From: Marsupella aquatica
Lineage: Eukaryota > Plantae > Marchantiophyta
Assembly: GCA_973895155.1 (NCBI GenBank)
Contig: OZ316892.1
Location: forward strand, 28,606,307 to 28,670,306
DNA length: 64,000 nucleotides
Direction of reading: 5' to 3'
Made by a program: the position numbers and the translations under genes. The notes beneath the pieces were generated by a model that ran no database searches, was not told where the DNA came from, and worked only from the letters and a program-made list of their open reading frames with translations. Positions 7,663 through 55,106 of this stretch are shown here, in pieces (within the stretch, counting starts at the first letter, position 1; each line of letters begins with the position of its first letter).

Positions 7663-7970
7663 ATCAGGTTAGCTTGGACAAATTATGAGACTCCACCCAT
7701 CCCTTTTTTGGTCAGTCACGGGCCCCTCGGGCACTCATGACTAATTAGGTGTCATATCAGGTTAGTCCAATCTGGCTAAACCAACCCACATACACTATCC
7801 GGCCAACTTGATCACTAAATTAGGTTAGCTTGGACAAATTAAATTAGGTTAGCTTGGACAAGTAATGAGACTTCACACGCTCCCACGACCAATTAGGTGT
7901 CATATCAGGTTAGTCCAATCTGGCTAAACCAACCCACATACACAATCCGGTCAACTTGATCATGAAATTT
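7663..7970. repeat. Local direct repeats upstream of the TM9SF gene
   Basis: AATTAGGTGTCATATCAGGTTAGTCCAATCTGGCTAAACCAACCCACATACAC at ~7743 and ~7891; AGGTTAGCTTGGACAA occurs three times. Confidence 0.75.
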
Positions 7971-12903: not shown

Positions 12904-13094
12904 GCTGAAATTGTGGACAACGGATAAACATTGGCTTCAGGGGTCCTTCTTCTTTGGTTACATGGGATGCGTCTGCTATGGGTTCTTCCTCATGTTAGGA
13001 TCTGTCGACTATCGAGCTTCCCTTCTTTTTGTTCGGCATATTTATAAGGCAATTAAGTGCGAGTAAGCTGAAATTGTGGACAACGGATAAACAT
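12769..13094 (+). repeat. 163-bp tandem duplication of the TM9SF 3' coding end and stop codon
   Basis: 12769-12931 is repeated at 12932-13094, with two G>A differences seen (GGC>GAC, AGG>AAG). Confidence 0.95.
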
Positions 13095-20122: not shown

Positions 20123-20274
20123 CTAGATTCGACATGACAGAGATAGTGGGGCGTACCTCCTTGTCAAGTTCTCTTAACTATCAACCCTGCTTGACAATCT
20201 GCCTAGATTCCACATGACAAAGATAGTTGCGTAAACCTCCATGTCAAGCTCTCTAACTATCAACCCTGCTTGAC
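20123..20274. repeat. Two ~80-bp tandem copies overlapping the stop codon of the Myb/SANT ORF
   Basis: CTAGATTC.ACATGACA.AGATAGT...CCTCC.TGTCAAG.TCTCT.AACTATCAACCCTGCTTGACA at ~20123 and ~20203. Confidence 0.85.
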
Positions 20275-21257
20275 ATTCTTTCTATAAAGTACCTAAGTGA
20301 CTCTCCAACAAACGTTAAGGCAGCAGTGACCTCTCGAGACATTTCCCTTGCTTGCTCCATTGCCTGCCGTTGCTGAGACAAGTTGTCCTCGTGTTTCTTC
20401 TCTTCAAGTGCTATAAGCCTCTCATGCTTCTCTCGCTCGTAAGTCATGACTTCAATGTGCTCTTCCCTTCGTGCCTGTCTATCCTCCACCAATGCATTTA
20501 CTAGCTTATCAATAACCTTGTGCAAATCTCCCGTACTCTTTTGTCTACGAGTACGCTTCCAGCCCCTTATAGTTGATCCCCCCAGGGGTGGTGTCACGTC
20601 TCCATTGGCACGTCCAGGACTCGGCTGTTGCTCATTACTACCATGGTCAAGGGTAGGCCCACCTACTCCATGGGCATTTTGAAAGAGAACTCCACCACCT
20701 AAATCCATATTTCTGGTGCCCATTTGAGGGCTTCTGCCTTCTCTCTGGATATCCATATCTTCATCCACGTTAACGATAAGAGGCGCTGAGAATTCCTCAT
20801 GGAGAGGCATGGAGAGTGGTTTGGTGATGCTCTCTTCTATCGTTGTACTGTCCACAATCTGTAGGGGATCGGGATGGGCAGATTTATTCCGAGGAACCCA
20901 GACCTCCATAGCTTGATACCATTCGCCCGCAAATAGTGATGGGAGCCTTTTATCCTTTCTCTCCTTCCTTGTCATTTCAAAATATCCATCTTGTCCAGCA
21001 GGAATCTGCTTTTGGTAGTCGTAGACCTTCTTGAAATCTGTAAACAACCTCTCCCATCGTTTCTTACACTGTTCCCACTTCTTATTCACACCGTCTTTCC
21101 GACAAATGTCCTCCACCTCTTTCCACCTTGCTTCAGCAGTTCGCATGCGCTCTCGAGAAGGATCCAAGGTTGATTGTTCTGCTTGATATCTCTTGGCTGC
21201 GATGAGAACGAGCAATTCTGTGGTTGCCCATCGAGCCAGTTGCTCGGGTTTTGTCAT
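20253..21257 (-). CDS. Myb/SANT-like (trihelix, Myb_DNA-bind_4) protein, the ORF1 partner of a PIF/Harbinger transposase
   Basis: Intact 334-aa ORF: RWATTELLVLIAAK...RWKEVEDICRKDGVNKKWEQCKKRWERLFTDFKKVYDY...YFEMTRKERKDKRLPSLF, plus a C-terminal coiled coil. Divergently oriented ~3 kb from a Harbinger transposase. Confidence 0.85.
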   Translation of the reverse strand: MTKPEQLARWATTELLVLIAAKRYQAEQSTLDPSRERMRTAEARWKEVEDICRKDGVNKKWEQCKKRWERLFTDFKKVYDYQKQIPAGQDGYFEMTRKERKDKRLPSLFAGEWYQAMEVWVPRNKSAHPDPLQIVDSTTIEESITKPLSMPLHEEFSAPLIVNVDEDMDIQREGRSPQMGTRNMDLGGGVLFQNAHGVGGPTLDHGSNEQQPSPGRANGDVTPPLGGSTIRGWKRTRRQKSTGDLHKVIDKLVNALVEDRQARREEHIEVMTYEREKHERLIALEEKKHEDNLSQQRQAMEQAREMSREVTAALTFVGESLRYFIERMSSRVDS

Positions 21258-23001
21258 ACTCCCCCTTTCTAATTCTGATTGTATTGATCTGTGCTACACA
21301 AAACAGAGAAAGGCATATTACTACCATGAAAAGCGGTCAGCCTCTGTATACAAAGAACCCTGTAGAATCTCAGTGCGCAAGAAAGTGTGGCCGCTCATGA
21401 CTTGCATCTGTGTCAGTATTCTTCAAGAATGCCGTGGGTTCTGCTGTCAAGAGCAAGAATTCACGCTTCACCACTCGCAATGAACTGCATATCTTAAGAG
21501 AGGACTCACAGAGTCGATCTCAAGGGCCACGCTCTCACATCGTTCAGTCAACCAAGTCCCAATTTTATATGCTCCTACAGAAAGTCATTCAATCCTAAAT
21601 TGTCAAAGTCCTTGCCATTTCCCATGCCCAGCATTTTCCAGAACTCAGCAGCCAGACCATCCCAAAACCTTGTAAACCTCGTGTCTCCCCCTGTCAAGAG
21701 AGACACTCCATTCAGAAAAATAGACAATTCAAATGGATGGGGCTCAGAAGAAAGGCTAGTGCAACTTCCAAATCTTTAATTTTGGGGACTTTGGGAAGAG
21801 CTCTCACATCATTGAAAGCCAATTACCACCGTCACTGCTTTGTCCTCCTCAAGTCCCTGGGAATCCAAAATCAGCAGCATCTTGTTCTCAGCCCCATCGT
21901 TTTTGGATCATATGGGAAATGCACTTATTCCTGCACGACCTAGAAGGTCTCTGTTTTGGCCCCATTCTGCGGAAAACTATGAAACCCCACGCAGTGTCGC
22001 ATCTCTCACGTCAGCAAAAGCACAGTCGAGGGCCCTGACGCAATAACTATTACACCTGCCAAAATCCACGGTCTCAGCATATCAAAGAGGCGCAACCACA
22101 GTTTGGAGGGATGCTACCTATTTCTTCTCAGAAAGCCAGGAACGGTCACTTTTTTAATTTCCCAGCCTCATCATCTCAGTGAGTTGAACATTCACGCTTC
22201 GACCCACAAACAAACCCGTAAGCTTTCCTCCCCTTAGGACCAGCAGCATCTCTCGTACAGCATCTTCTTTTGAGCCTAAAAATCAAGCCTTCAAAACCCG
22301 CCTTGCGTTGCCTTCAGAATTTTTCCATTTGGTGAGGAAAAGGAGAGATGACGACGTGTCATCTGGTTGGGCACTGGAGATATAACCCCCAGTTACACAA
22401 AATGTAAGCCAAATATGATTTCTGTGGGAAATTCGGTCATCCAAAATGGATATCAAAGGAATTGTCCTTTTCATATGCTCAAACCAGATGATCCCACGTC
22501 TTTCTTCTAATTCCTGCGCTACCTCAGTCTCTGCAACTGTACCCAAATTCTTCAACCTGACTACCTTAAATGCACGTAAAATTAAAGTTGTGTGGGCTCC
22601 AATGTAAATTGGTGCTTTTGCGAACGACAATTGCAATCTCGACATCTACAGCCAACTTGTCACGCATTTTCGTCCATCCATGAAGATGTGAATCCAGCTA
22701 TTGCTTCCCGACCTCTCTATCCACCTACCTCGTAAAACAGCTACCTAGCCAGCTCGATGACTCCACACCGGAACCCTGGTCACACACCTAAGTGCTCCAA
22801 CCTATCCCTGCCATCCAAACTATCGTAGCATTGTAAGCAATGCCACTTCCTGTCTTATGTCTCATGCTTACCAAAACCCTACGCGTACTCAAAGTCCAGG
22901 CCTGAACCACAAATTCAACCGAGCTTAATTTACTCTAAAAAAATCCTTGTCCCGCGTTACAGCAGTAGTAGCAGCACCGCCGTTCGTTCAAGTCCAGACT
23001 A
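21013..23001. repeat. Segmental duplication, copy 1 (copy 2 at 29814-32113)
   Basis: Near-identical direct repeat from TGGTAGTCGTAGACCTTC to TCAAGTCCAGACTA. It includes the 5' part of the Myb ORF and a decayed coding-like region. Confidence 0.95.
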
Positions 23002-28223: not shown

Positions 28224-29747
28224 TCATTGTATTGTACCGGAGTTGTCTGCACCTGGATCCAAATATCTCACTCTGTTTCTAATTGGTTTCATACTTTCTA
28301 AAAGGTAGGATAAACCTTGCAGAACATGCCTTCGGCTGTACGGGACTCCAGTCTTAGCCAATGCATTCCCATAAGCGTCTAATAACAAGAAGCACGGAAC
28401 ATACTTAATGTCGTACAGCAATACCTGCCAGCAAACAAACATCAATATAAGGCTGGTAAATCTAGTCCCAAGTAGAGAGCAAATGCACTTCTTTGACCCT
28501 ATTGGAATGTAAGGAAACTTGGAACATTATGTGGGAGATCTTAGCGATGTCCAAGTGAGTGCTGACTGGAAAGATCGCAACTAATACTCTGACTAGATGC
28601 AACCTATAGTCCAGACCAATGCCACAGATTAAATGAAATCCACACCAATGTCCAATTTCAGTTAAAATGAAATAAGATACACACTCAAATTCATCTGAGT
28701 GCCTGTATGAAGCTGCCCATTCTAGTTTCCCTGTAACGACGACATGCATCTGGCTGCTACATCAATATATAACATGGTTGAGAGTCGGTGAACAGATAGA
28801 ATGCTGGCTGTAAGTTTCCTCTACCGTTAGCTCCTAGAGGTACTGTCAAAACAGAAGAAATCAGAGTCCTTTGAATGTGCGTTGACGAAAGTAATTTACA
28901 TGGTGCAGGTTTCACACAAGGGAAAATAATCACCGAGAAGTCACATTCTTGGAAGATCATAACAAGGCCATATGACGAACAAAAGAGATTGACCCCCTCG
29001 TTTAGGCAATGATAAAAGGCATGAGATCCTTGACATTGACTCATAACTCTTGGCGAACCCTACACTTTAAAACTGCAAAATACAACAGCATATAAACTCC
29101 ATACTGGGAAAAAGTACCTCGGGAAGCCATCTTTTGTTCTCAACATCAGCCATAACAATGTGCAGCCACTCTTCATGTTTAGACTCCACCTCTTGCACAA
29201 CGGGCACAAGAGATCTGCAAAGCTTACATCTGGAAGAATAGAATTCTATTATGGTCGCAGGCTTTCTTCTCGCCAGAGCCTGTGCGAAGGCCCTTTCTTC
29301 AAGCTCGCCGAGGTCGTCCTTAGACAAAGAAATTCCTTCTCCTGCCTCTTTCTTCCCGAATTGCCCCAGATTCATAAGGAAATCCTGCAACTGGGGGAGA
29401 AACTGTTGCCCGAAGGGGAAATCATTTCTCCTTTCAGACTTGGAGATTGACGCAGTAGAGCTTCCTGAATTGGGCACACCAATCTCAATGTGGAACGGAG
29501 CACGGACCACTCTGTGTAATCCCTGGACGCTACTAGCTCGGGGTGGTACCGACTTGTTGGGGAGCTGCTGTTTCAGCTGCTCAATGTGGTCAATAACTAG
29601 AACCCCTACATTTCTTAGGGTTTTGAAAACCCAAGGCACCTCCAATTTGCAACCTCCGGATGTCCCATCGGAGGAGGAAGGGGAGGGCCACTTCATGCAC
29701 ACCCACTGTGCATTCTGCCAATCATCCCTTCCGTCTCTTATCTTCAT
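28224..29747 (-). CDS. Thioredoxin-superfamily protein (plant atypical CxxC thioredoxin-like, HCF164-related fold), 2 exons
   Basis: Exon 1 29747-29118 (ATG...WLPE, GT donor) and exon 2 28424-28224 (CAG acceptor, [28 protein letters not shown]); 276 aa. Active-site region [14 protein letters not shown] and cis-Pro YVP. Confidence 0.88.
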
Positions 29748-29813
29748 CCCAAGCAAACTCAGTTCTCTTCTCTCAAAATCTTCCTACCTCTCCTACACCC
29801 CACCCGCCGCTTA

Positions 29814-32113
29814 TGGTAGTCGTAGACCTTCTTGAAATCTGTAAACAATTTCTCCCATCGTTTCTTACACTGTTCCCACTTCTTATTCACACCGTCTTTC
29901 CGACAAATGTCCTCCACCTCTTTCCACCTTGCTTCAGCAGTTCGCATGCGCTCTCGAGAAGGATCCAAGGTTGATTGTTCTGCTTGATATCTCTTGGCTG
30001 CGATGAGAACGAGCCAGTTGCTCGGGTTTTGTCATACTCCCCCTTTCTAATTCTGATTGTGTTGATCTGTGCTACACAAAACAGAGAAAGGCATATTACT
30101 ACCATGAAAAGCGGTCAGCCTCTGTATACAAAGAATCCTGTAGAATCTGAGTGCGCAAGAAAGTTTGGCCGCTCATGACTTGCATCTGTCTCAATATTCT
30201 TCAAGAATGCCGTGGGTTCTACTGTCAAGAGCAAGAATTCACGCTTCACCACTCGCAATGAACTGCATATCTTAAGAGAGGACTCACACAGTAGATCTCA
30301 AGGGCCACGCTCTCACATCGTTCAGTCAATCAAGTCCCAATTTTATATGCTCCTACAGAAAGTCATGCAATCTTAAATTGTCTAAGTCCTTGCCATTTCC
30401 CATGCCCAGCATTTTCCAGAACTCAGCAGCCAGACCATCCCAAAACCTTGTAAACCTCGTGTCTCCCCCTGTCAAGAGAGACTCCATTCAGAAAAATAGA
30501 CAATTCAAATGGATGGGGCTCAGAAGAAAGGCTAGTGCAACTTCCAAATCTTTAATATTGGGGACTTTGGGAAGAGCTCTCACATCATTGAAAACCAACT
30601 ACCACCGTCACTGCTTTGTCCTCCTCAAGTCCCTGGGAATCCAAAATCAACCACATCTTGTTCTCAGCCCCATCGTTTTTGGATCATATGGGAAATGCAC
30701 TTATTCCTGCACGACCTAGAAGGTCTCTGTTTTGGCTCCATTCTGCAGAAAACTATGAAACCCCACGCAGTTTCGCATCTCTCACGTCAGCAAAAGCACA
30801 GTCGAGGCCCCTGACGCAATAACTATTACACCTGCCAAAATCCACGGTCTCAGCATATCAAAGAGGCTCAACCACAGTTTTGAGTGATGCTACCTATTTC
30901 TTCTCAGAAAGCCAGGGACGGTCATTTTTTTACCCAGCCTCATCATCTTAGTGAGTCGAACATTCACGCTTCGACCCACAAACAAACCGGTAAGCTTTGC
31001 TCCCCTTAGGACCAGCAGCGTCTCTCGTACAGCATCTTCTTTTGAGCCTAAAAATCAAGCCTTCAAAACCCGCCTTGCGTTGCCTTCAGAATGTTTCCAT
31101 TTGGTGAGGAAAAGGAGAGATGACGACGTGTCATCTGGTTGGGCACTGGAGATATAACCCCCAGTTACACAAAATGTAAGCCAAATATGATTTCTGTGGG
31201 AAATTCGGTCATCCAAAATGGATATCAATGGAATTGTCCTTTTCATATGCTCAAACCAGATGATCCCACGTCTTTCTTCTAATTCCTGCGCTACCTCAGT
31301 CTCTGCAACTGTACCCAAATTCTTCAACCTGACTACCTTAAATGCACGTAAAATTAAAGTTGTGTGCGGGCTCCAATGTAAATTGGTGCTTTAGCGAACG
31401 ATAATTGCAATCTCGACATCTACAGCCAACTTGTCACGCATTTTCGTCCATCCATGAAGATGTGAATCCAGCTATTGCTTCCCGACCTCTCTATCCACCT
31501 ACCTCGTAAAACAGCTACCTAGCCAGCTCGACGACTCCACACCGAAACCCTGGTCACACACCTAAGTGCTCCAACCTACCCCTGCCATCCAAACTATCGT
31601 AGCATTGTAAGCAATGCCACTTCCTTCCTCATTGGCCTGTCTGATGTCATTGGCCTGTCTCATGCTTACCAAAACCCTACGCGTACTCAAAGTCCAGGCC
31701 TGAAACACAAATTCAGGGTTTGGACTTGCTCGGCAAATAGAGGTTTTAGAGTAGTCAACTGGCAACTCGTCACCTAGACCGTCCTGGCCGCCCGACCTTG
31801 ACTTCCCGGCCCTTCCCGGCCCGGCCATGACCTCCCGGCCCTGGCCGGCTCACACCCCGCCCCAACCCTGTCCCGGCCTGACCCCGGCCTGTCTCAGCCT
31901 CCCTGCCCGGGGAATCTCAAGGAATATCCGGCATTTCAGCCAATTTTCGCCCGGCAAATGACGAGTTTACGTGCCCGGAAACTCCGCACGTTGCCCATCA
32001 CTTCAAACCTGGCACAAATTCAACCAAACTTAATTTTCCCAAGACTCTAAAAAAATCCACGTCCTGCGTTACAGCAGTAGTAGCAGCACCGCCGTTAGTT
32101 CAAGTCCAGACTA
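29814..32113. repeat. Segmental duplication, copy 2 of 21013-23001, with a truncated Myb fragment
   Basis: Colinear with copy 1. It has a short deletion in the Myb start region (GAGC microhomology at ~30011), a small extra repeat at ~31625-31655 and an inserted hAT-like MITE. Confidence 0.95.
31714..32012. mobile_element. hAT-like MITE (299 bp) with 8-bp TSD
   Basis: Absent from the paralogous site at ~22906. TSD CACAAATT at 31706-31713 and 32013-32020; imperfect TIRs CAGGGTTTGG / TTCAAACCTGG; C-rich CCCGGC-repeat interior. Confidence 0.85.
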
Positions 32114-34691: not shown

Positions 34692-37600
34692 TCACCAGTA
34701 ATCTCCACAAGAACAGCCATCGTTGCTAAAATGATGAAAGCGTGTGGCATCCCTGACAATTATAGTTCTCCCGCATGATTTTGCAATGAACTTGAAGGCA
34801 GTATGACAGTCATCACAGACCCGTAAATTTTTTAGAATCCGGAGAGGAGTATTAGGAGGTGTGTTGAGGAGCCCAAATGCAAGGGCCAGCTTCTCACTGT
34901 GGTCCCACAATCGACGTACCTTAGCTCCTTCCTCAGCTTCATGCAACACAAACCTTGTATCTGGTACATACCCGTCATGTACTATTTGAGCTCGCAGTCT
35001 GCTTAATTCTTTGCGGATTCTGTGAATTTGAGGATGCCCTTGATCGTCTGCTGTAAAAGTGTGCACTTGATCCTTTAACACAATCCAGGTGCACCCAGGT
35101 GGCTTCTTCACACCCCGTTCAATCATCATGTCTTGAACTTTTGCTTTGCTGTCCCAATTGCCAACAGAGGCATATATATTTGATAGTAGAACATACCCAG
35201 GGGAAGTACCAGGATCCAGTTCCAGAACTTGTTGCCCAACGCACTCTCCAATCTCCACATTACCGTGGACTCTGCAAGCACCGAGCAAGGCCTTCCATGC
35301 TACAACATCAGGTTCCCATGGCATACTCTCAATCAAATCCTCCGCTTCATGGAGACGGCCAGCACGACCAAGAAGGTCAACTGTGCAAGAGTAGTGCTCT
35401 AGTGCTGCTGAAATCCCGTAGTCTGGATTCATGGATTTAATAAAGTGGAGACCTTCATCTACAAGGCCAGCGTGGCTGCACGCTGATAGAAGAGAAACAA
35501 ACGTGGACCGGTTGATAGGTAGATCCTCTTGACACATCCGTTCAAAAAGTTGCAGAGCTTCAATCCCGTTCCCATTTCTGGCATGTCCTCCAAGAAGAGC
35601 ATTCCAAGATACAATGTCACAGGTGGGCATCTTCTCAAAAACTTCTAATGCATCTTTTACACTACCGCACTTGGCGTACATGTCGATCAGGGAATTTGCA
35701 ACGTACAAATTATCTTCACAACCACTTCGAATAATCTGTGAATGGATATGGGTTCCTTCTTCGAAAGCTGCTACATCGGCGCATGCATTCAGGACTGCGA
35801 TGAAAGTAATAGGCTCTGGTTCCACTTGTTCCTCTTGCATTTGACGAAATAATGCTAATGCCTTACGACCTTCACCATGCTTCACATGTCCCATAATCAT
35901 GGCATTCCAGGCCCAAACGTGACGTTTAGGCATTTTGTTGAACACTGCATATGCATCCTCTATATTCCCGCACTTCACATACATGTCAACAAGGCTACTC
36001 TCAACAAAGATGTCTCCTTCATAACCAGCTCGAATCAGCTGTGCATGAATATCCTTGCCTTGTCTACCTGCTCCTATACTAGCACATGCATTTAGTGCCT
36101 GAACGAATGTGACTTCGTTTGGCTGCACCCCCTCTACTTGCATTTGTTCGAAGAGTTCCAATGCCCTTTGACCTTGCCCACATTTCGAGTAACCACCAAT
36201 CGTCGCATTCCAAGAAACTACAGTTCGCGTATTAGTTGCACTGAAAACTTTCCATGCCTCATCTATGCTCCCACATTTTGCATACATAGCCACCAGAGAA
36301 TTTCTCACAAACGTATTTTCCTCACAATTACTTTGAATGACCTGAGCATGGGTACGCCTGCCTTCTTCGATATCCAGTGTAGCAGCGCATGCATTCAAGA
36401 TCGCCACGAAGGTCATAGTGTCTAACTTCAGTTGCTGTGCTTGCATCTTTTTAGACAATTCCAATGCCTTTTCTGGCTGTCCACATTTCACATATCCTGC
36501 AATCATCGCATTCCAAGAGGCTGCAGTGCGTGTCGGCATCCTGGTAAAAACCCTCAACGAATCCTCAATGCTCCCGCATTTTGCGTACATGTCAACCAAA
36601 GTACTAGCCACAAACACGTCCGACTCATAACCTCTTAAAATGATCTGTTCATGAGCAAGCTTGCCTTCTTCCAGTGCTGCTAAACTAGCACACGCATTGA
36701 CGATCCCCACAAAGGTGACAGAGTCAGGTTGGACCCCTTTTCTTTGCATTTTCCGAGAAAGTGCTAATGCCTTCAGCCCTTGACCAGATTTGACATATCC
36801 TGCTATCATTGCATTCCAAGACACCACATCCCGTACAGGCATCTGGTTGAATACTTTCGCTGCATCCTCTATGCTCCCACACTTGGCATACATGTCGACA
36901 AGACTGTTCCCCACAGCAACCTTTGCCTCCAGACCACTCTGAATGATCTGTAAATGAATCTGCTTACCATTTTCAAGTGCTACAACACTGGCGCACGCAT
37001 TTAAAAGGCTCACAAAGGTAATACCGTCTGGCTTCACTTTCAGACTTTGCATCTGCCCATATAACTCCAATGCCGTTTGGCCTTGTCCACATTGAACATA
37101 CCCCCTAATCATGGCATTCCAAGATACCACTGAGCGCGTAGGCATCTTATCGAACACTCTCCGTGCATCCTGTGTGCTTCTACACTTGGCATACATGTTG
37201 AGCAAACTGGTAGCCACAAATACATCCGACTCATAGCCATTTCTAATGATTTGTGAATGGATGCGTCTACCTTCTTCAAGTGCTCTTAGACTAGCACATG
37301 CATTGAGGACTGGGATGAAGGTGTACAAATCTGGACTCAGGCCCTTCCGATGCATTTCATGGAAAAGTTCTAGAGCCCTTTGATGTTGACCATTCTTAAC
37401 ACATCTCGTAAGCTCAAGATTCCAAGAAAAAGGGGAAGGATTTACGGTTCCTGGTGCAATTGCAGCAAGTCTGTCTCCTACCCATATGGGGTTAGATTTT
37501 CCTCCCACCCAAAGGCCCTCCTGAGTCTTCTTATGGGTGAAATCTGGATATGTTGCACGCGCCTTCAAACAAGAAATTCAAAGCTAGCATGCTCAGACCT

Positions 37601-42636: not shown

Positions 42637-44534
42637 ATGAATTTTGGTAGTCCATTGTTGCAAGCATTTTCAAATGTCTGCCCGTATGTCATACCACCTT
42701 CCAATCCTGCAGAGCCCATAGATGATGCCCGAGTAGATGAAAATTGTGATCCCAATGTGACAGTCGCTAGACGTAGGCTCCAATGTGTCTCCACAAAGGC
42801 CCAAAGGGTGAAGGTGGTGAAGTGGATGCAAGAAACAATCGCTACCAGAGGTGATGACAAGAACATTGTCTCTGAGGCTGTGAGATACTTTCCTGAAATT
42901 TTCGGGGCATAAAGTTACACAGCAAATATAGTCAAATGTTCCACATGGTGGAAAGAGAGGACCGAGCTTTTTGAAGCCCTGAAGAGTGACAACATGAGCA
43001 TTAGTCACACTTATTTGGGAGCAAGAAAGCGGGTGGAGTTAAAAGCTCGTCTAGGGAGGGGGAGGAAGGGGACAGCTTGGAGTACCTGGTTGTACCCAAT
43101 CGTGCGCTCTGAGTTCGAGAGGTTAAAAAGTGCAGGATTAAAATTTTCTCCCAAAGTCCTCTTGCTGGTGGCAAAAAATGCATTGCAGAGCAATCCCCAT
43201 CCTTCCTTTGGACCCAATGTCATCTTGGAAGATGATGACAGGCCTCTTATTGAGAGGATCACTCCACGTTGGGTGCAACAATTTCAAGAAACTTAGGGAA
43301 TTGTTCATAGAAGTCAGACTGGCAAGTTAATGGTTTCACCAGCAAAAACTGAGTTTATTGAGAGAGGTGTCGCCTATCACGTGGGGCAGTTAGCACGTGG
43401 GTTTTGTAGTGGGGCACTTGATGAAAATCTTGTTGAAAACATGGACGAGACCCACTTCATTATCAATATGGATAATGACCAAACGCTTGGATTCAAAGGG
43501 GACCAGGAAGTCAAGTATGTTGACATCGTGAGTGGTGGAGTCGGCATCACTATGGTGGTGAAAACTATGGGTGGGGTGGCTGGAAAAATTGCAACTCCAT
43601 TTCTGATTTTTTAAAATGACAATTGCTCCTACCCTATTCGCGGGGTGCCAGATACAGTGCCTGGAGTTTGTTACCGCACTAGCAAAAAGAGCTTCATGAC
43701 ATCAGATTTGTTGAGTGAGTATTATAGTGAGCCTCGAGTGACTTGGGCTGCCCCTTCTGGCCACACAAAGATACAATGGATTGACAACTGCCCCGAGCAT
43801 AAGATTACTCCACAATGTGAGGCTGCTTTGGAAAGAGTGAAGACAGAAATCCGTAGATTTCCAGAAGCAGCTACTCACTTGGTCCAGCCATGTGATTCGT
43901 TTGTCATTAGCAAAATTAAGGACGCTTGGACCAGGAGATGGGAACAAAAAAAATTGGAGATGCTTCGAGATGCACAATGGCAAGGATCTGGCCTGATGGG
44001 CACTAGTGGGATGTTAAAGAACCCTGGGAAGAAGTATTTTTTGGAGTTAGCTGCAGCTAGTGTGAGAGACGTGAACAGCCAGGTCGACAAAAAGCATGGG
44101 ATCAACTATGCAAGGAAGGCTATGATCAGGACAGGGTTGGGTCTCAACTTGAATGGCCAGTGGGAAGAAAGACAATTGACTCCTCAATTACAAGAAATCA
44201 TTGGCAAGTATCATTGAAATTTTGATGGATATAGAGATGGACTTCCCCCCTTGAGGACGGGTCTCTTGTGGACCCGCTTGTGGAATCAACATTGATTATT
44301 TCTCCTTTTGTGGATCCTCCTGTGGACCCAGCCTCAATTACTCCCCCTCTTGTGGATCCTCTTGTGGACCCAGCACCGATAGCTTCCATGAGCAATGCAG
44401 GGAATATTTCAAATGAGGATGAGCATGTTGAACATGCATTTGATGTCTTCTGCGGAGAGGAGGACAAATCTGGTGATCTATGGAATTTCTTGGATCAGGA
44501 ATACGGTAATGATTGCACATTGGACAAAGAGTGA
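42637..44534 (+). pseudogene. pogo-like DD36D transposase with in-frame stops
   Basis: ORFs 42529, 42994, 43330 and 43645 are one frame broken by TAA, TAG, TAA, then TGA at 44215. CENP-B-like HTH region (GRGRK...WVQQF); triad ENMDETHF / WIDNC / LVQPCD. The acidic PVDP-repeat tail is in a shifted frame. Confidence 0.9.
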
Positions 44535-45351
44535 GTAGTAGCATTGTGGATCTGTCTTGTCTGACCATCTGTTCTCATGCCTGTTGGCTTATGGCAACTT
44601 GAACGACGGCTCATGTTTAACGTTGTTTGTGTAGTAAAGAACATATTTAAAGTGTCACTACACACAATTCCTGGTCATTTTTGTATTTTCGTCATTTTCT
44701 GATTTTTGTTGGTGGAGTTCTTGTTGTTGTTAGAATTTTGAACCAAGCTTTCAAATATTTTCCTTCAAAATTTGTCAGCATGCATTGAATAGCTGTTAGA
44801 TTGATGGACTTGCCTCACGTCTAATAAGCAATCCATGCAAATCTCATCAAGAATAAATCTGTCCAAGTCAAGATTGATTTTATGGTGCTACCGAAGGCAT
44901 CAAAGATCAAACACGAAAGAGTTGAAGTTCTTCCTGGCTTGCAATTAGCTTTGCTCTGCTTTCTTTGTATGTACCTGTACATTTTAGAAATTATATAGTG
45001 GTCAGTCTGCTTCCTCTATCTTGTGGCAATCTCCATGAACTGTCTCAGACCAGCAAATTAGCGTTGTGGATTTTGCCTCATTTGTCACTCTCTCTGGATC
45101 TTGTATTTTTCTTTTTGATTTCACTCAATTTCACGCCATTTTGACAAGTATTGTGCATGTTCTCTCAAACCAAGTGGTGAGAGACTCACACAAATAGTGT
45201 TAGCTGATGATGACGTGGATGGATAATCTCCACTCCACTTGAATGAGATCCCGCCTGAGACGGTGATCTATCCATATGGTATTGGTTGTCAAACTCTCTT
45301 GTGTCTCAGTCGTGTTCTATTTCTCAAGATTGCAAATATTTTGTTTACAAG

Positions 45352-46161
45352 ATGGCAAGGAATATCTTTCGTAATGTGGTCTGTTGTTTTTTGCCAGTCA
45401 CCATGAGCAGCCAAACAACAATCATGAGTAGCCAAATAGTGAATCGTTTTGTTGCTCGTGGTGGTCTTCGTCATTATTACATTTCTGATGCCACAACGCA
45501 CACGGTGGCAAATTGTTGGGCTGAGGTCCAAGAACATTTGCAAGACTTTCCTGGTCTGTTGGAGCATTTTGCAGCAACCGTGCAATTTGTTTCCATTGAT
45601 TGGATAGAGTATTCGATGAAGTCAGACTCGTTGTTGTCTCTTGAAGCTTTTGTACTCAAACCAGATTTTGGATTTGAAGGTTCAAGTTCACCAGTCTTTG
45701 GTCTCGTGCTGCCTCCCGTGAAATTGACAGCTCTATTGCTTCAGGCTCGTATGGAGGCTTATATCAAGGCAACTTGAGAGGAAAAGCAGAAATTTGACCA
45801 GGAATTTTTCAACATGCAGAAGTGCGAAAGTGGTGGCAGGCGATAAAACGACCTTCTGGAAATAAGAAGAGACCAAGACTCTCTCACCAGATTCAGGGCC
45901 ATGAGTAATTTAGGAATCAGGCTGTTAGTGCGGTAGACTAAACGGCTTGTATTAGATGTTAGACCTGTGATTCATAATCCAACATTGGATTCTGCAGACC
46001 AACTCTATTTTGTAATTTCAGATTGTGTATTTTTCTCAAGTTGGTTAGTTTCCATGAACGTGAATGTAATGCAATGTTTTTCATGTCAATTTTGTGTGCA
46101 GTTGTCGATATGGTGCTCTCTTCTTTCTTTGTGCAAATTTTGTGTGCACATCGGGAATTAA
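45352..46161 (+). pseudogene. Second ORF inside the pogo-like element, unknown function
   Basis: ORFs 45286-45777 and 45967-46161 share one frame, joined through three single stops (TGA 45775, TAA 45844, TAG 45934). Protein-like composition; no recognised domain. Confidence 0.55.
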
Positions 46162-48519
46162 TTTTTCAACTCAAAACCAAAATTCTAGAAATTGATCAAG
46201 TATTCCTTACGGCAAAAACATGAACGACAAGTCACCAAAATAGTGTACCACGTAACAACTCAATTAGTGTTATCTTTAATGTTAATTAACGCGTACACAA
46301 TTAATGTTACTCATCAAATACTGTAAGTTATAGTAATTGAGGAGTGGAAAGAATTTTTACTGGCTACATAAATAGTGTTAGTAACACTATTTTTGGTAAA
46401 CAGTGTAGTTAATTTCTATCAAAAATACCTATTTTTGATCACACGTGGTTCCTAAGATTTTTGATAGTCAACCCCCCGAGTTGTAGACCTCCTTATGTCC
46501 AGACAGTCTCCATAGTCACAATCTACATAGCCAACCAACGTTCTATCTGATCTGTTATCAAATAATAATCCATAGTCCTGTGTGTTCCCTTCAAATACCT
46601 GAGAATCCACTTCACAGCTTTCCAATGTACCTTCCCTAGATTTGACATGAATCTGCTAACCTTGCCCATCGCTAGGGTCAAGTCAGGCCTAGTACAAGTT
46701 ATCAAATACATCAGACTGCCTACTGCCTTCTCATAAGGAATCTTAGCCATCAGACCTTTCTCCACAGCATCCCTAGGAGAGAAAGTCGATGATAACTTGA
46801 AATGTGAAGCTAAAGGAATACTCACTGGCTTACAGTTCTCCATGTTGAATCATGCAAGTACTTTCCTCACATACTGGCCTTGACTCAAGCACAACAGTCC
46901 AGTATCAGAGTTCCTAAAAATCTTCATCCTTGAGATCCTCTTGGCCTTACCAAGATCCTTCATCCTGAATTCAACACTCAATTTTGCCTTGAGACTGTGA
47001 ACTCAGATTGATCTTTAGCCACAATTAGCATGTCATCCACATAGATCACCAGAATGATGAAACCAAATACATCATTCTTGACTGATTTCGTATACACACA
47101 AGGATCATACACCATCCTTGTAAAACCTTGAGCAAGCATAAAATCATCAAACCGCTTGTTCCACTGTCTGGGAGACTGCTTCAATCCATACAAGGACTTG
47201 AGCAATTTGCAAACTAAGTTCTCTTGGCCCTTCTTCATAAAGCCTATTGGTTGTCTCATGAAGATCATCTCTTCCAAGTTGCCATAGAGAAAAGCAGTTA
47301 CAACAACTATTTGATCCATCACCAGACCAAAAAACACAACAAATTGATACAAGATCTGAATTGGGGAATACTTAGCCACCAATGAAAAGACCTCATTATA
47401 ATCCACTCATTTCTCCTAAGTGAATCCCTTGGCAACAAGTCTTGCCTTGTAGATATTATCTCTACCCTCTGAAGGATTATCCTTCAACTTGTAAATCTAC
47501 TTGACATCTTGGAAGCTCCACCAGCTCCCATGTCTTTTTGTCACTCAAAGATTGCAATTCCCTCTGCATTGCTGCATTCACTCATGTTTCTGCTCTGAAG
47601 CACAAGCCTCATTGTATGAAGAAGGCTCTCCTTCTTCCAAGATCAAAGCCATATCATCATCATCAGGTGCAATGTCAATATCATCTAGCTTAGATGAGTC
47701 TGCCCATTGACTATACCTGGTAGGAGCTCTAGTAGAACGGTTGGAAATTCTTCTAGTAGATGACTCAGGCTGATCTGCTGCTGCTTCTGGCTAAATTTGA
47801 GGTACTCCAACAATAATATGCTCCTCTTGTTCCAACACAGGATCCAGCTCCAAACTTGGAGCTTCTCCATCTCTCTTGTCATGAATAGCATCATGACTAA
47901 TCACCCCCTCAACCCGGTCTGGGATGGGAAATTTCCCATTGTCCGTATGGGAGTCTTGAGAACTCTCCCCCTCCTTTGATGATCTGGATTCATTAAAGGA
48001 CACATCTCTACTGACAATTAGTTTACAGGTTACTGAATCCCATAACTTATAACCCTTCACACCTTGCTGATAGCCAAGGAAAATGCACTTCTTGGACTTG
48101 GACTCCAACTTGGATCGAAGCTAGGAAGGTGTAAGCACATAGCATCACATCCAAAAATCCTTAGATGTGAGTAATCTGCTCGACGCCCATACCTCATTTC
48201 AAATGGCGTCTTGAATCCAATAGAATTGGATGGAGAAAACTTTACCAAATAAGCTGCAGTGTTGACAGCTTCAGCCCAAAATTCATGTGGTAAGCATGAT
48301 TGACTCAACATACTCCTCGAGCGGTCCAATAGTGTTTGGTTGAGTCTCTCAGAATCACCATTCTATTGAGGAGTATAACTTGTTATGAGATGGCGGGTAA
48401 TCCCCTGCTCCTTACAATACATTCTAAATTCCCAGGAACTGTATTCACCGTCGTTATCCAATCAAAGATATCTCACCTTATTATTAGTCTCATTCTCAAC
48501 TTGGGCTTTCCACTCCTTA

Positions 48520-51500
48520 CACTAGTACATTTTCAGCATTTTTCCGATGCTCCGATATCGCGAGAGCTTAGCCGTCCGAAACTAAACAAATCGGAAATGC
48601 AGAATTGTCCGACTTCAATAGTAACGCAATTTGCCATTCTTTTTGAATCGCATGTTAAGTCCGACTTCAATAGTAACGCAATTTGCCATTCTTTTTGAAT
48701 CGCATGTTAACCTTCCGATGCAAATGTAAACGGTCCTTCCTTCCGTTAGTTTTAGAATCGGATGTCTTCCGATAATATTAGTAACGGAAATGTATCGGAC
48801 AAGTATCCGATAACTGTTAAGAGGGGTCCGATGCAGACTGAATTGGACAAGGTTTCGGAATTAAGATAAGATGTTTCTGACAATTATGCAATGTTCATTG
48901 TATCGGATATGGTGTGGAAAACGAATACTCATAACTTTATTAAGAAATCTGGTCCCTTCCATAGTAGAGGGAACATGAAATACAACAATGATATATATAA
49001 TGCCGGTAAAAATAAACATATGGAGGGGTCCTACGCAATTAATCCCAAGTTACACTAGCTAGCAAGGACCTCAAGGCTTGGGGTCCAAATCTTCAACTAC
49101 AACCACATTGGGTCGCTCCTGGATGATGGATTGTGATGTGGAATATAAGTCATGACAATGGACCACTCAGGATCATCGGGATACGGAAGATAGAAGGCCT
49201 GCTCAAGATGGTGGGGGAATGCAAATGGATCAGATGTTCTCCAAGTTGAGCTAATGACACTATTTGCACCTGTCTTCAACCGTGTGAATCCACAAGCATC
49301 CTCTTTGCAAGTTCGGTTATGGCCAACAAGGTTCATCCAAAACCATTTGCACTTCAACACCACCTCCTCCAAAGTGGTGTGTGCATGATAATGCACTGTC
49401 AATATCTCTTCAATCTTGCCATAGTGGGCCACTGTAGAGCGTATTGGATTCCTATCAGATGTGCTACTTTATGAATCTTGGGTGAACCAACCCATGACCC
49501 CACAATCCTGTGTAGCTGCCCTCTTATCATCAAGCCGTTGCACACAAAAATGCCTTCCCTTTGACCACATGGCGGTCCGAGTTGTCACCGTGAGTAATGG
49601 TCCATGAACCAAGGTGCAAAGGCTGTCTGTAACCAAAGGGAAGTCTGACACGCTCTCCCCTTGCTCCAACAAGGCATCAATCTTGGTCAACTTTACCCTC
49701 ATGTATGGGACAAACTTGGGGAAGATGCATGGCCGATGACTATTTGCCTTTTCCTCCTCATAAAAAGTTGTCCAATCTCCCGCAATCTCAGGCAAGTTAT
49801 ACAACATAAATGTAGTGACTTGAAGGCGCTCAGCTGAGCCCAAAAGTCGTTCTCCCTTTGCCCCTGTAAGACGGTCATCTTCAAAGTCTGCTTCCCTGGA
49901 TGCCTCATCTATTCACCCCCTTGGTGCACTGGGATCAAGTGTAGCTACAATGTTTGTACAATAAAACATGCTCTTTGCTCCAAGATGATACTCAACAATG
50001 CTACCTTCCACTCTCGCACGATTTGACACATATGACTTCATCACTCCCATAAACCGCTCTACCCAGTACATCCAACGACAATGTACCGGCCCTGCAATGC
50101 CAACCTCACGCACTAGGTGTAGGAGGAAGTGAACTTGGCCATCAAAGAATGAAGGAGGGAGTGCCCTCTCCAACTTGCACAATACCTCCACTCCAAACAG
50201 GTCCATAGCTGCAATCTCATCCTCATTCACCTCTTTTTGACACACCCACCTCAAGAGCTTACCTAATGACCACAGGGCATCACGAAGATCCTCACTACCC
50301 AATCCAATGATGGCCACTAGAATGACATGTTGTAGTAGACGATGGTAATCATGGGTCTTCAAGAAAGCTGGCCAATGTGGACAGTCTGGTCCCCCAAATG
50401 CCTTGCGCAGATTGACCCCGTAGCCCGTAGGAAACCTCATTGACCCTATACGATTGCGGAACTCAATCCGCTCGCCTCTGGTCAATACCCAAGGAGGGTG
50501 AATAGTAAGGGGGCCATTAGGGGGATCCATAGATGGCCAAAAACCATGAGGACCATGCATTCACATCTCCTCACAACTCTCTCTCCAGTTGTTGTCTTTC
50601 TCTCCGTATAGATGGCGAATCAATGACCTCCCAACGTTCCCCTCAATATGCATAGGGTCAAACAAATGGTTAATTGGCATCTCAGCCCAATATGGCAGCT
50701 TTGACATTAATGCAGACAAACGAGTCATGCCACACCGGGCCAATGGTAAGGGATCATCTGGGTCTGTCACTCTATCCCATACCTCCTTCCAATAGCGTGG
50801 ATCCCTTGGCACTAGTTGAGGGCATGTGTCTGGTTGGCCATCATCCATGTCATATAAGAATGGGTCACGCCTCCATTCATGCTCTGAGGGGAGATACTTT
50901 GTGTGACCAATGTAAACTATCTTCCATAGGGTGGTAGACTTAGGGCGTGCCACGCCCTCCAAATCAGGACCACAAGTTGGGCAGGCTCGGTATCCTGATG
51001 TTTGCAACCCAGATATCCAAACCCTACAACACACACAATCAATACATTAAAAAATAGCCAGGCAAACTTTTATATATAACATTATCCTATAGTGTATTAT
51101 CTACCATAAAAAACCATGCATAATATTGGGGAAGGTATATTTTAACATACCAGGAAGATCATGTATGGTCCACATAACGATGGCTTTTAATTTAAATTCA
51201 CGAGGTAAACCACCCGTCAGCACTCGACCATCGTAGCAATCAACTCCCCTCCATAGTTGTTGAAGCTCCTCCAACAATGGTTGCAAGTAAACATCAATCT
51301 TTTTACTTGCTTGGGGCCTGGGATAATCATTGAGAGTAGCAAATGACCTTTCTTCATGGCCATCCATGGAGGGATGTTGTAATTTGTAAGGACTACTGGC
51401 CAAACTGAGTATGGTTGGGCCTTCCCGGCCAATGCAAAGGGGCTGATCCCATCTGATGCCAAACCTAGTCGTACATGACGTGGGTCTGTCTTGAAGTCAC

Positions 51501-52320
51501 CCCGTCGGTCCTCCACAAACCTATTTGCAGGTGAGTCCACCATCATACGCATGGTTGGCCGATCTGAACTCATATCTGACCGGTTCTTGGAATGCCACAC
51601 CATATACTCAGCCAACTCTGCACATCGGTACTGGTGCCATAATCTGGGGATAAGAGGAAAATACCTCACGACCTTCTATGCTACTTTTCCAGTCAGCATG
51701 TCCTCTCGATACCTCGGTTGGTCACATGTAGGACATGTAGTGGCATCTTTGTGTTCCCCCCTGAATAGAACACAATCATTCACACAAGCATGCATGACTT
51801 CGTATTTGAGGCCTATGGATTTCAACACCTTTTTTGCCGCTTTCCATGAACTAGGCAAGCAGTTCCCTTCTGGCAAAATATGACTATGCAAGGTCCTCAA
51901 GAGATCATCAAGAAGGAGATTGCTTGCTCCATGTCTTTGCTGCAAGTTCAACAATAACATTATTCCTAAGAGCCGAGATAGTTGTGACCCCTCAAAAATT
52001 CGTGTTTGCGCATGGTCACGAGCTTCCTCCCATTGTCTAGAGGAAGAACTTTGTGAAGGATTGTCACCATGAGGACGTGCATTGGTGTCAAATGCATCAC
52101 CCATATCATGGTCACCATCCTCCACGTCATAGAACTGGTGCATAAGATCATCCATGGCCCTCTCCTCCTCAAGTCTATCTTCGGTGGCATTAGACACATG
52201 CTCAGGAGGGGCATCTTCATTCTCTGATGCTTGAGCCCTACGCCAATCACCCATGGCCTCAACAAGGTGTTGCCGCATTGCTCGTGATAATACCCCCATA
52301 TCTGGTTGAACATATGCATT
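48520..52320 (-). mobile_element. CACTA/EnSpm DNA transposon (3' terminus at 48520; the other end not found)
   Basis: CACTAGTACATTTT begins exactly where the Copia integrase frame breaks. Dense TCCGA/TCGGA subterminal repeats in both orientations at 48540-48910, including a 52-bp tandem pair at ~48607-48710, then a Tnp2-type transposase. Confidence 0.9.
49097..52299 (-). pseudogene. CACTA TnpD/Tnp2-type transposase (Transposase_21, DUF4218, DUF4216), decayed
   Basis: Motifs HACVNDCVLFR, CPTC, RYFPLIPRL, DPRHVRLGLASDG, YSVWPVVLTNYNIPPW, IDVYLQPLLEEL, WTIHDLPG, DPMHIEGN, KTHDYHRLLQ, PPSFFDGQVH, GPVHCRWMYWVERFM, YGKIEEI, KCKWF, DPFAFP. Probable short intron near 51020-51148; stops and frameshifts present. 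Confidence 0.93.
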
Positions 52321-52554
52321 CTAACATTTCACAAACATACATATTATATTAGAAGGGCCACAATGAGACAAGTGTTTAAAGGTATAGGCTTTTTGGTTTC
52401 CCCACAAAATTACAATTCTCTTTACACATTCTACTAGTATACTTTCAAACCTTGATCAAAGATTGACTTACACAATTAACCAATTTAGTTTGAAAACCTG
52501 TATCATGTATTTTATGTTAAACAAAAAGGTGGTATATATACATATATGTCTGCC

Positions 52555-52986
52555 CTACATGGGGCGAGAAAGCAATGCTGTCTTGGGCCTATCCCACTCA
52601 TAGTCACAAAACAACTCCTGGCCAACCCTAATGGTTGTAATGGCTACAGTCATGACATGATCATCCATATGTTTTACATAGTAAGGCTCTCTAGGTGGAC
52701 CAAATATCTGAATCCACACTACATTAGGCCTAAGTCCTCTCCCTCTACCACGAGTACTATTGATGTACCCAGCTATATTATCGGAGCAAATAGGGTCGCC
52801 ATCAATCATCCGAGAATGCCAAGGCCTTTGTATGATCTCATCTGGATCAGAATCCATTTGCAATGCATAGACACCCCACGATGGGTGTTGGCGCAATAGA
52901 ATGTTCCAACCTTTTGAAGTATACACAGGACCAATGTATGGAAATAGGTGCTCACCATCATAACCTCGGGGCCACGGCTTGGGCAT
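52555..52986 (-). CDS. SET-domain (lysine methyltransferase-like) ORF, transposon-associated
   Basis: 143-aa open frame with ordered SET motifs: GEHLFPYIGPVY (G..I.EY.G), YALQM...IDGD...NIAGYINS (IDA..GN.ARFINHS), RPNV, VAITTIRVGQELFCDY (A.RDI..GEEL.YDY). Confidence 0.8.
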   Translation of the reverse strand: MPKPWPRGYDGEHLFPYIGPVYTSKGWNILLRQHPSWGVYALQMDSDPDEIIQRPWHSRMIDGDPICSDNIAGYINSTRGRGRGLRPNVVWIQIFGPPREPYYVKHMDDHVMTVAITTIRVGQELFCDYEWDRPKTALLSRPM

Positions 52987-53182
52987 AGAGCCATTTAAAT
53001 GGTTTTGGTGGAAGACTTATTAAGTCTTCTATGGAAATATAGGGTTGTTTAATTGCAAAATGCATACGTGTCATCACATGATTGGTGCCGTACAACTTTC
53101 TAGAAAGTGACTTAGGGGGGTCATAAATGACCCAAACCATCGCACGCGATGCATGACCCTTCATATAGTGACCCCCCCGAGA

Positions 53183-53673
53183 TTGTGGCCCCAACTTCTT
53201 GTTCCTCTCATGGATCCAATCACAAAATGTCACTTGTGTAATTCAATCAACATCCTCCAACTGGAATTCCTCCTTCATGCATTTCTCAAAACACCGCCAT
53301 GTCTTGTCTTTTGATGCCTCATGCAAGAACTATAGCATCAACGATCCCTTTTAATTCTGGCTCCACCAATGTTGAAAATTGATAAATTACAACCTCTTCT
53401 GAAAGTTGCTCAATAGTAGCCTTTTGCCAATAGGTCTTCATGTAACGAGTTACATTACGACCATCAAATTGCCCATTCTTCTCAAGAACCTTCCTCAAGC
53501 ACTTTGTTGCACAATGTGCTTGCTCTTTCTTTTGATTTTCTACTGTATTGGTTTGTTTCATACTCTACATCAAAGTCAACAACATTCTAGACATGGTATC
53601 CATGTCCATAGTGTTGGGGGACATACTTGAGTCTCCCATGTCAGTATTGTTAGGCATCGCTATATACCAATTT
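53183..53673 (-). mobile_element. LTR-retrotransposon fragment: LTR end, PBS-like site and truncated Gag (Gypsy-like)
   Basis: Minus strand reads ...AAACA AAT TGGTATATAGC (resembles the tRNA-iMet PBS TGGTATCAGAGC), then ATG 53657 and Gag-like GQFDGRNVTRYMKTY...VEPELK...TWRCFEKCMKEEF.LED.D.IT..TFCDWI...LGPQ, with stops and one frameshift. Confidence 0.6.
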
Positions 53674-54904
53674 GTTTACTCTCTCACAATGAATAGGTGC
53701 TCACCACCTAGGTGTCCCTAGACCAATTGTCTAGTAAAGCAAGTTAGCCTCTTCTAGTAATGCAATACTTCTTTTTTTCTTCCAAAAATAGGCCCCAAGA
53801 GTTCCCCAGTATGGTCGCCACTTATGTCAAGGGAATTTTTAGTTCTTGGAAAGCACCAAGCTCTTGTTTTTTCTATCTTGAAAGAAACCTTTCCAAAGTA
53901 CGCCTTTTCTCACCTCACATTACCCTTGCAATCCTCTTTGTCGATTAATTTTCCTCATCATTATCCTCTAAAATATCTCTCATAGCCTTTGTCCCACTCT
54001 ACAATGAGCGGCTTCCTCACACTAAGCCTTGAATCGGCCTATCCTCTTTCCACATAACTTACTTCCCAAGTCAAGTCATGGATTGTAATTTCCAACAAAT
54101 CCTACAATTAGATAAGTCAATTATAGAAAACAAAGACTATGATCTTAAAATTTACCATAGATGATATAATAATAGGCTCTAGCATCCTAAGCATAACATT
54201 GTATCTTTCATCTCCATACTTTCTAACTAAAACATCTCTACAATCAACCTTATTATGACATACCACTCTAATGTCAATAGATGAAGAAAAATTAGGCATA
54301 TTATTTAGGAAGCCTATTCAAATCTAACTTCGGTACATTTACGGATTGTCTATTAAATCCATCTAATATAAAATAAATTGAGTTACATTCCATTCATTTC
54401 CAGAAGCAACAATCGGGTATACAAATGATGCATTGCTATTCATATCTGTTTCCATTAATTCAAACTCAAAATGATAAAGAACATACATTTTCATGGTATG
54501 CTTGCTAAGACAATGAATTCTAATTAAGAAATGATTGACAAATGGCACAGCAGGTGGGGGATGAACTCTAGGTATTCCATTTATCATATTATTCATTACA
54601 AACACACTAAATTGATCTCAAGATTAATAAACATAAACATAAAATAGTTCTAAGGCCAACAATCAAGTTAGTACCCAAGCATGGATATAAATAACAAACA
54701 AGACATGTGCACAAGAGGGGAAGAGTTCCTTACAGCGTTGCAAGTCCAACATGATAGATCAAACAATGCGAATGAGGAGAGTGTGCTCCTCTTCACTTTA
54801 TTTATAGTGTCCCTTTGTGCTTTCCAAGAGGGCATGGATCGATGCCTTGACCCTTGGATGGAAGCCAAGTGGCAAGCATTAAGCACCTATAAGTGTGCTA
54901 GTAC

Positions 54905-55106
54905 TATTCATAGTTGGTGAAACTACTGTGCGTAGTTGGTGAAATTATTACACGTAATTGGTGGAACTACTGTGCGTAGTTGGTGGTATCACTATGCGTA
55001 ATTTGTGGAACTACTATGCATAATTGGTGAAACTATTATACGTAACTGGCAAAATTACTATGCATAGTTGGTAAAACTACTATGAATAATTGATGAAACT
55101 ACTGTG
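54905..55106. repeat. 22-bp minisatellite, about 9 copies
   Basis: TAGTTGGTGAAACTACTGTGCG and variants in tandem. Confidence 0.9.

Follow-up and report, generated by a model that had tools for sequence, protein, structure and literature searches.

SET-domain proteins have been described as transposon cargo before. According to the available text of PMC12730594, they are on record for HarbingerS elements and for Phytophthora MuDR elements, and according to that of 10.1101/2025.02.11.637652 they occur in Helitrons and in red-algal Plavaka elements, the latter belonging to the EnSpm/CACTA superfamily. As far as these texts extend, the records come from oomycetes and red algae, and a function was proposed there without a test. 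In En/Spm elements, TnpA binds the element ends and lifts silencing, the anti-silencing protein being a splice product (available parts of 10.64898/2026.08.24.746577 and PMC13547354); within the same parts, TnpA-like domains are reported in flowering plants only. Our literature search, which included the available text of PMC11982613 and of the Riccia genome paper PMC11735767 and had Repbase Reports, most subscription journals and supplements outside its scope, found no report of SET cargo in a land-plant CACTA element. Because of this limited scope, and because 10.64898/2026.08.24.746577, in which 962 Spm structures were compared, mentions accessory domains that its available text leaves unnamed, an earlier annotation of such an element may exist. 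The original prediction for the locus described here knew of no SET cargo in land-plant CACTA elements. This agrees with our search, but the novelty is narrower than it implied, given the published Plavaka case (available text) within the superfamily. SET domains in transposons, including the EnSpm superfamily, are already known; what is likely new, judging from the literature covered, is a bryophyte CACTA element with a SET exon that appears to be nested in the transposase gene.

The window, by which we mean the whole stretch of 64,000 bp that was analysed, lies on contig OZ316892.1 of the liverwort Marsupella aquatica, and all positions given are positions in the window. The SET frame and the features that adjoin it are, in order of position:

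46523..48519, minus strand: decayed Copia integrase/RT region, the insertion site of the CACTA element (SH3_retrovirus E 2.6e-18, RVT_2 E 2e-31)
48520..49050, no strand assigned: remaining CACTA end, with the terminus CACTAGTACA at 48520 and subterminal TCCGA/TCGGA repeats (motif count, TRF)
49097..52320, minus strand: CACTA transposase exons (TnpD/Tnp2-type), broken, without the transposase-associated first exon (Transposase_21, DUF4218, DUF4216)
52321..52554, minus strand: A+T-rich spacer, a predicted intron, with the AG acceptor for the transposase exon at its end (composition, spacer swap in divergent copies)
52555..52986, minus strand: 3' part of the SET-domain exon, 143 codons and a stop (Pfam SET 23.8 bits; homologues align from 52986 only)
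52985..53182, no strand assigned: dispersed high-copy repeat of about 195 bp, separate from the element, where the SET exon breaks off (depth, contig breakpoints)
53183..53700, minus strand: broken gag-like retrotransposon fragment outside the CACTA element (cut off at 53183; other copies run on past 53183)

Elsewhere the window holds an intact-looking frame of 961 codons for an organellar RNA-editing factor, a PLS-type PPR protein that has an E motif and a DYW deaminase domain (34692-37577, minus strand), an open frame of 997 codons with a guanylate-binding-protein N-terminal domain (14595-17588, minus strand, E 4.8e-27) and exons of an EMP70/TM9SF gene (9940-12158, plus strand), noted together with a near-perfect tandem duplication of 163 bp at 12769-13095. 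A direct repeat of about 1.8 kb (21008-22858 and 29809-31632, 97-99% identity, 8.8 kb apart) is adjoined at its two copies by a Myb/SANT-like frame (20253-21293) and a thioredoxin frame (29067-29783). There is also a fragment of a DDE_1 (Tc1/pogo-type) transposase (43615-44217, plus strand), and at 44656-45806 a stretch that starts with CACTA at 44656 and has a 24-bp inverted arm at 45783-45806. Two tandem arrays lie upstream of the gag-like fragment, one of 9 copies of 22 bp in a high-depth stretch (54902-55103) and one of 6.4 copies of 137 bp at near single-copy depth (55465-56338).

The minus-strand frame from 53016 to 52555 is open for 153 codons, or 143 counted from the ATG at 52986, and carries the IDGDP..NIAGYINS and ELFCDY motifs, as had been predicted. 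The SET frame is genuine: a scan with the Pfam SET profile (PF00856), proposed as a check in the original prediction, gave a match that narrowly passed the cut-off of 22.4 bits (E 6.1e-5) and covered positions 43-104 of the 105 in the profile. Kept in the frame are the central Tyr, IDG, NIAGYINS, the N and GxELxxxY with its final Tyr. The N-terminal GxGxF motif and the conserved extension of about 60 residues that precedes it are missing. The prediction had already noted that no N-terminal GxG was evident; it is deleted upstream of 52986, and the window is gapped at the GxGLF columns in an alignment of 54 relatives with a whole SET domain. Six homologues align to the window from 52986 onward only, and their N-terminal part has no better-than-chance match anywhere in the window; the 143 codons are therefore a truncated exon and not a whole gene. 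Conservation in full-length relatives extends over about 215 residues, the GxGxF motif among them, and the description of a minimal, virus-like, intronless gene of 143 amino acids had to be abandoned. The 153-residue frame itself gave a poor predicted fold (pLDDT 39.2), the cause of which cannot be pinned on truncation because its alignment held 6 sequences, against 45 for the full-length relative P0007.

For comparison with other copies, contigs of four public sequencing runs, out of 5 listed as containing the sequence, were aligned to the window; the depths given are summed depths and not copy numbers. Among 7 runs no RNA run was listed as containing the sequence, which has no bearing on expression. 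Four contigs of run X5 extend past 52980 with letters that read FALEDIVVPA, the missing motif, and sister copies retain the GxGxF that the window has lost. A frame in the window that reads EDLISLPPKP at about 53030 was considered as the missing SET part and rejected; it sits in the 195-bp repeat, in a different frame. In run X1 the depth was 7,500-11,700 over 52608-52913 and reached 16,300 where the transposase exon begins; the spacer had 380-1,650 and the flank about 70, and 23,000-86,000 was counted over 53016-53219. Many low-depth contigs match only from 52985 or 52990 to 53151 or 53178 and then diverge elsewhere. The repeat is without matching terminal inverted repeats and has two short palindromes near 52990-53025. 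The gag-like fragment beyond it has Atlas look-alikes at 0.91-0.94 among DUF7041/DUF4939-type and retroelement clusters, which is a lead only.

Downstream of the SET frame, on the same strand, Pfam matches were found to Transposase_21 in three frames (E 5.7e-24, 1.7e-11 and 8e-8), to DUF4218 (E 7.1e-30) and to DUF4216 (E 2e-6, below its cut-off). The transposase is damaged by at least four in-frame stops (near 51676, 50561, 49913 and 49469) and a frameshift near 51304-51319, and sister contigs differ from the window at positions 49913 and 51304. The co-oriented frame 52320-51676 opens directly after an AG (52322-52321), in phase 0. The distance of 255 bp from the SET stop to the ATG at 52300 and the AG site before it were as predicted; that this ATG is the start of the transposase was not borne out, and it most likely lies inside a spliced exon. 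The spacer between the two frames has an A+T content of 0.70, against 0.54 on either side.

At the remaining end of the element 14 TCCGA/TCGGA motifs were counted in 531 bp, against 0.46 expected at the rate of the window; elsewhere in the window no stretch of 531 bp outside this cluster has more than 5. A tandem duplication of 52 bp (48607-48710) lies within the same end. The integrase frame of the Copia element begins at the CACTA terminus and is interrupted by the CACTA element. By its Transposase_21 with DUF4218/DUF4216 and its CACTA terminus with subterminal repeats, the element is a CACTA/EnSpm transposon. The far terminal inverted repeat, reported missing in the original prediction, is indeed absent: a search of the window that allowed up to 3 mismatches in 14 found no partner on the far side, the far end being deleted in this copy, with only the terminus at 48520 present. 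The transposase-associated domain of CACTA exon 1 (PF13963) is likewise absent from the window. The simplest reading is that a deletion took the 5' part of the CACTA element, and with it exon 1, the beginning of the SET exon and the other terminal inverted repeat. At eight SET positions where sister copies differ from the window, seven differences change the amino acid and one is silent; this is a small, tool-selected set (40 shown of 209 differences) and not a dN/dS test, and in sequence terms the ratio would be more in line with decay of the window copy. It is virtually certain that the copy in the window is non-functional.

Divergent copies keep the SET and transposase exons together. Three X5 contigs and one X3 contig connect the end of the SET frame with the beginning of the transposase exon (52320-52327) through another spacer, the breakpoints being 52320, 52323 or 52327 joined to 52591 or 52594. 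In two of the joining contigs, 75 of 390 and 67 of 387 SET bases are not those of the window (81% and 83% identity). One X3 contig spans 52269-52650 with 4 differences, at a depth of 221 against 20-24 in flank contigs (about ten times). The alignment of the sister copies ends at the codon after the final Tyr and restarts at the AG acceptor, as expected if selection acts on the coding parts only.

A protein search with the SET frame gave 63 matches at E ≤0.001 in a library clustered at 50%. In the 26 clusters that were looked up (most matches carry no organism), all 14 organism-named relatives are from liverworts: 13 Riccia sorocarpa models and P0084 from Calypogeia fissa, the closest organism-named one (70.6% over 136 residues). 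The Riccia model P0023 contains both SET and Transposase_21 (E 4.8e-45), and in P0065 the SET continues into sequence that matches the first transposase exon of the window (E 8.5e-4); the pairing thus recurs in Riccia at 34-43% SET identity. At least 13 Riccia models that carry the label SET-domain or hypothetical are members of this family, and host SET genes could be overcounted on their account. No host-type SET protein was present among the 63 matches or among 30 further ones, and no flanking host-SET domains were found in the 53 relatives scanned; the SET is not recognisable as part of a host SET gene, and the prediction had likewise set it apart from host ATX, SUVH and ASHH genes. In a quick tree (careful search unfinished, no host SETs included) the window groups with P0084 and P0007 at an SH-aLRT of 99. 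P0094-P0098, P0050, P0059, P0049 and P0058 form a remoter branch of the SET family, at 24-32% identity to P0007. Among viral_contigs no relatives were found (13 pattern matches, 0 related), and matches in BFVD to SETs of giant viruses and phages reached E 1.2e-7 at 9-21% identity; a viral origin is neither supported nor excluded, because these matches are no better than cellular ones. That the SET belongs with the CACTA family, as had been predicted, agrees with the divergent sister contigs and the Riccia models, and in all probability the SET is cargo of a CACTA family with many copies.

The position of the SET exon within the element was compared in three metagenome loci, L001, L002 and L003, the last being short (1,104 bp). 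The best Pfam match upstream of the SET was Transpos_assoc (PF13963) in L001 (E 1e-4) and L002 (E 1.4e-3), with scores of 22.8 and 19.1, under the cut-off of 27.7 at both loci. A CxCxxC..H pattern upstream of the SET is also present in P0014, P0057, P0100 and P0110. An exon with this probable transposase-associated domain thus precedes the SET in relatives, which would place the SET inside the transposase gene, and the view of a separate SET gene upstream of the transposase was not upheld. In L001 the sole GT near the end of the upstream exon and the AG before the SET frame are both in phase 0, and past the SET stop and a second A+T-rich stretch a phase-0 AG opens an acidic frame; the A+T contents of the two predicted introns are 0.72 and 0.65, against 0.51-0.55. 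The acidic frame is only loosely like the acidic start of the transposase exon, with no Pfam match and no tblastn match to the transposase exon of the window. L002 has a phase-0 donor and acceptor, which are less unique, a base composition that also fits, and no transposase within about 330 downstream bases; in L003 neither a transposase-associated exon nor a transposase was found. Given the phase-0 junctions in L001 and the phase-0 transposase acceptor in the window, exon 1 could be spliced either to the SET or to the transposase. From these two short metagenome loci and the gene models, it appears likely that the SET is a nested exon of an alternatively spliced CACTA gene.

We propose the following mechanism. 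Exon 1, with a Ser/acidic tract and the CxCxxC..H transposase-associated domain, would be spliced in phase 0 to the SET exon, where a stop terminates the frame. Alternatively, it would be spliced past the SET exon to the transposase exons. One gene would then give two products, exon 1 with transposase and exon 1 with SET. In the least certain step, the shared, putatively zinc-binding exon would bring the SET to the element ends or the transpososome, and the SET would write a di- or trimethyl mark by which the element would stay accessible or transcribed. For the whole chain, from a nested SET exon to an accessory lysine methyltransferase acting on histones at copies of the element itself, we regard the balance as even. 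That bryophyte CACTAs would encode a self-targeting histone methyltransferase from the first exon of the transposase, the zinc-binding exon docking and the SET writing an activating or silencing-blocking mark, is put forward tentatively and with some doubt.

The relative P0007, which is 67% identical to the window frame, gave an AlphaFold model with a mean pLDDT of 76.9, mostly above 85 over residues 111-320. As the original prediction had led one to expect, this model matched SET domains (Foldseek E 1.9e-7), with LegAS4, SETD8 and MLL1 ranked first (E about 2e-7). In VIA-align, Set1, EZH2, SET8, SET7/9, NSD2 and LegAS4 form a tie at Z 12.1-11.2; the enzymes for H3K4, H3K27, H4K20 and H3K36 and LegAS4 are thus within one Z unit, at 16-28% identity, and because the candidates tie the substrate is not readable from the structure. 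The plant classes SUVH6 (Z 10.3) and ATXR5 (Z 9.5), at 19-20% identity, are not above other SETs. The Legionella LegAS4/RomA SET (PDB 8swi, 5czy) is the best profile match (E 5e-5) as well as the best Foldseek match. A phmmer search of the PDB with the single sequence gave chance matches only (five at E 0.3-1.5), and NCBIfam gave no match for any of 4 proteins. The SET fold holds for the family, as demonstrated on the predicted structure of this full-length relative.

A histone substrate and a mark that would serve the element have about equal weight for and against. The same exon layout and an active enzyme would also be compatible with methylation of a non-histone protein, either the element's own transposase or a host silencing protein, by which transposition would be tuned. 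A common first exon would put both products in one complex, and no structural neighbour stands out, with SET7/9, an enzyme with many non-histone substrates, near the top of the tie (Z 11.6). However, histone methyltransferases make up most of the top structural matches, and an H3 peptide is present in the solved structure that ranks best by profile and by Foldseek; as an argument this is weak, because the SETs that have been solved are mostly histone enzymes. We consider a non-histone substrate unlikely.

Whether on histones or other proteins, the proposed activity depends on the catalytic residues. Of 110 proteins 72 had a whole SET, and 54 were left once those more than 90% identical were removed; their identity is 20-87%, with a median of 33%. 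Conserved among them are G171 (53/54), G173 (54/54), N259 (50/54), E312 (54/54) and the final Tyr (52/54), a conservation that is favoured because the relatives were retrieved by searching with the window SET. The usual SET NH motif carries a His, which is replaced by Ser in all 54; at the position of the lysine-orienting Tyr 15 have Phe, and no post-SET zinc motif or cysteine-rich flank accompanies the SET. These replacements, and the presence of PR domains and MLL5 among the structural matches (Z 9-11), would suit a SET without catalytic activity whose role is to bind host proteins or histone tails, be it as a reader, a decoy or a target-site guide for the transposase. Such a SET seems distinctly unlikely to us, since GxG, the cofactor Asn and the final Tyr are retained across sequences of such low median identity, and LegAS4 shares the His-less motif. 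Based on the model and the residues, the family SET is probably an active methyltransferase. Two residues ahead of the final Tyr, only 2 of the 54 have an aromatic residue; by the Phe/Tyr-switch rule, a non-aromatic residue there permits di- or trimethylation, which the family SET would then allow.

The two-product splicing proposed above differs from onward splicing of the SET exon, which would give a SET-transposase fusion, the reverse of the SETMAR domestication. The Riccia models P0023, P0043, P0065, P0080 and P0110 do link SET to transposase-like sequence, but they are automatic models, and in P0043, P0065, P0080 and P0110 the join loses the final catalytic Tyr. Most relatives stop within a few residues of this Tyr, base conservation among the sister copies also stops there, and a search of proteins of 878-2505 residues gave 0 among 3,871 candidates (weak evidence); a fusion is thus very unlikely. 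That a host gene fragment was captured once, as in Pack-CACTA elements, and drifts neutrally, or that the SET is a chance neighbour of the transposase, would fit the truncated and decayed copy with its missing end, but this reading is highly improbable, being largely refuted by the repeated SET-transposase linkage in Riccia and in divergent copies, where both exons can be aligned and the spacer cannot, and by the 63 and 30 matches, which are free of host-type SET proteins.

A self-targeting histone methyltransferase of this kind, if the reading is true, would provide the first transposon-encoded histone writer that is testable in a genetic model, for example Marchantia. With a liverwort family, the question whether a transposon writes its own histone marks becomes accessible to plant genetics. 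The copy in the window is a poor specimen, and intact sister copies are better suited for study.

Among the known systems, LegAS4 resembles the liverwort SET in its His-less YIN motif, its small residue two before the final Tyr and its lack of cysteine-rich flanks; it differs in being a bacterial effector, has 21-28% identity and is structurally tied with several eukaryotic SETs. It reportedly has H3K14 activity. PAG2 of Plavaka is, like the liverwort protein, a SET domain on an EnSpm-superfamily transposon with a proposed role in chromatin, but two further accessory genes accompany it and its SET is joined to an N6-adenine DNA methylase (available text of 10.1101/2025.02.11.637652). In the liverwort family the SET would be flanked on both sides by parts of a canonical land-plant Tnp2 gene, and no match to the N6-adenine methylase (PF01555) was found in 53 relatives at E 0.01. 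The SET genes of HarbingerS, Phytophthora MuDR and Helitrons are also borne by transposons, but of other superfamilies and in other hosts, and the available texts describe no shared-exon layout for them (PMC12730594, 10.1101/2025.02.11.637652). VANC of VANDAL elements (MuDR), as far as its description was available, is a transposon-encoded anti-silencing function and alike only if the inferred role of the SET holds; it is a separate gene without a SET fold, in a superfamily other than that of the CACTA-SET family.

The proposed arrangement parallels TnpA/TnpD of flowering-plant En/Spm, with the SET product in the place of TnpA. In maize En/Spm and Arabidopsis EN/SPM3 one CACTA gene gives a transposase and an accessory protein by alternative splicing (available parts of PMC13547354 and 10.64898/2026.08.24.746577). 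TnpA, as described there, is a DNA-binding protein of the helix-turn-helix type and recruits demethylases of the host that act on DNA, whereas the liverwort accessory product is a predicted enzyme. This suggests that the accessory slot of CACTA elements, taken by TnpA in flowering plants, may be filled by an unrelated enzyme, which, if true, would give a plant lineage that lacks TnpA an enzyme as its counterpart.
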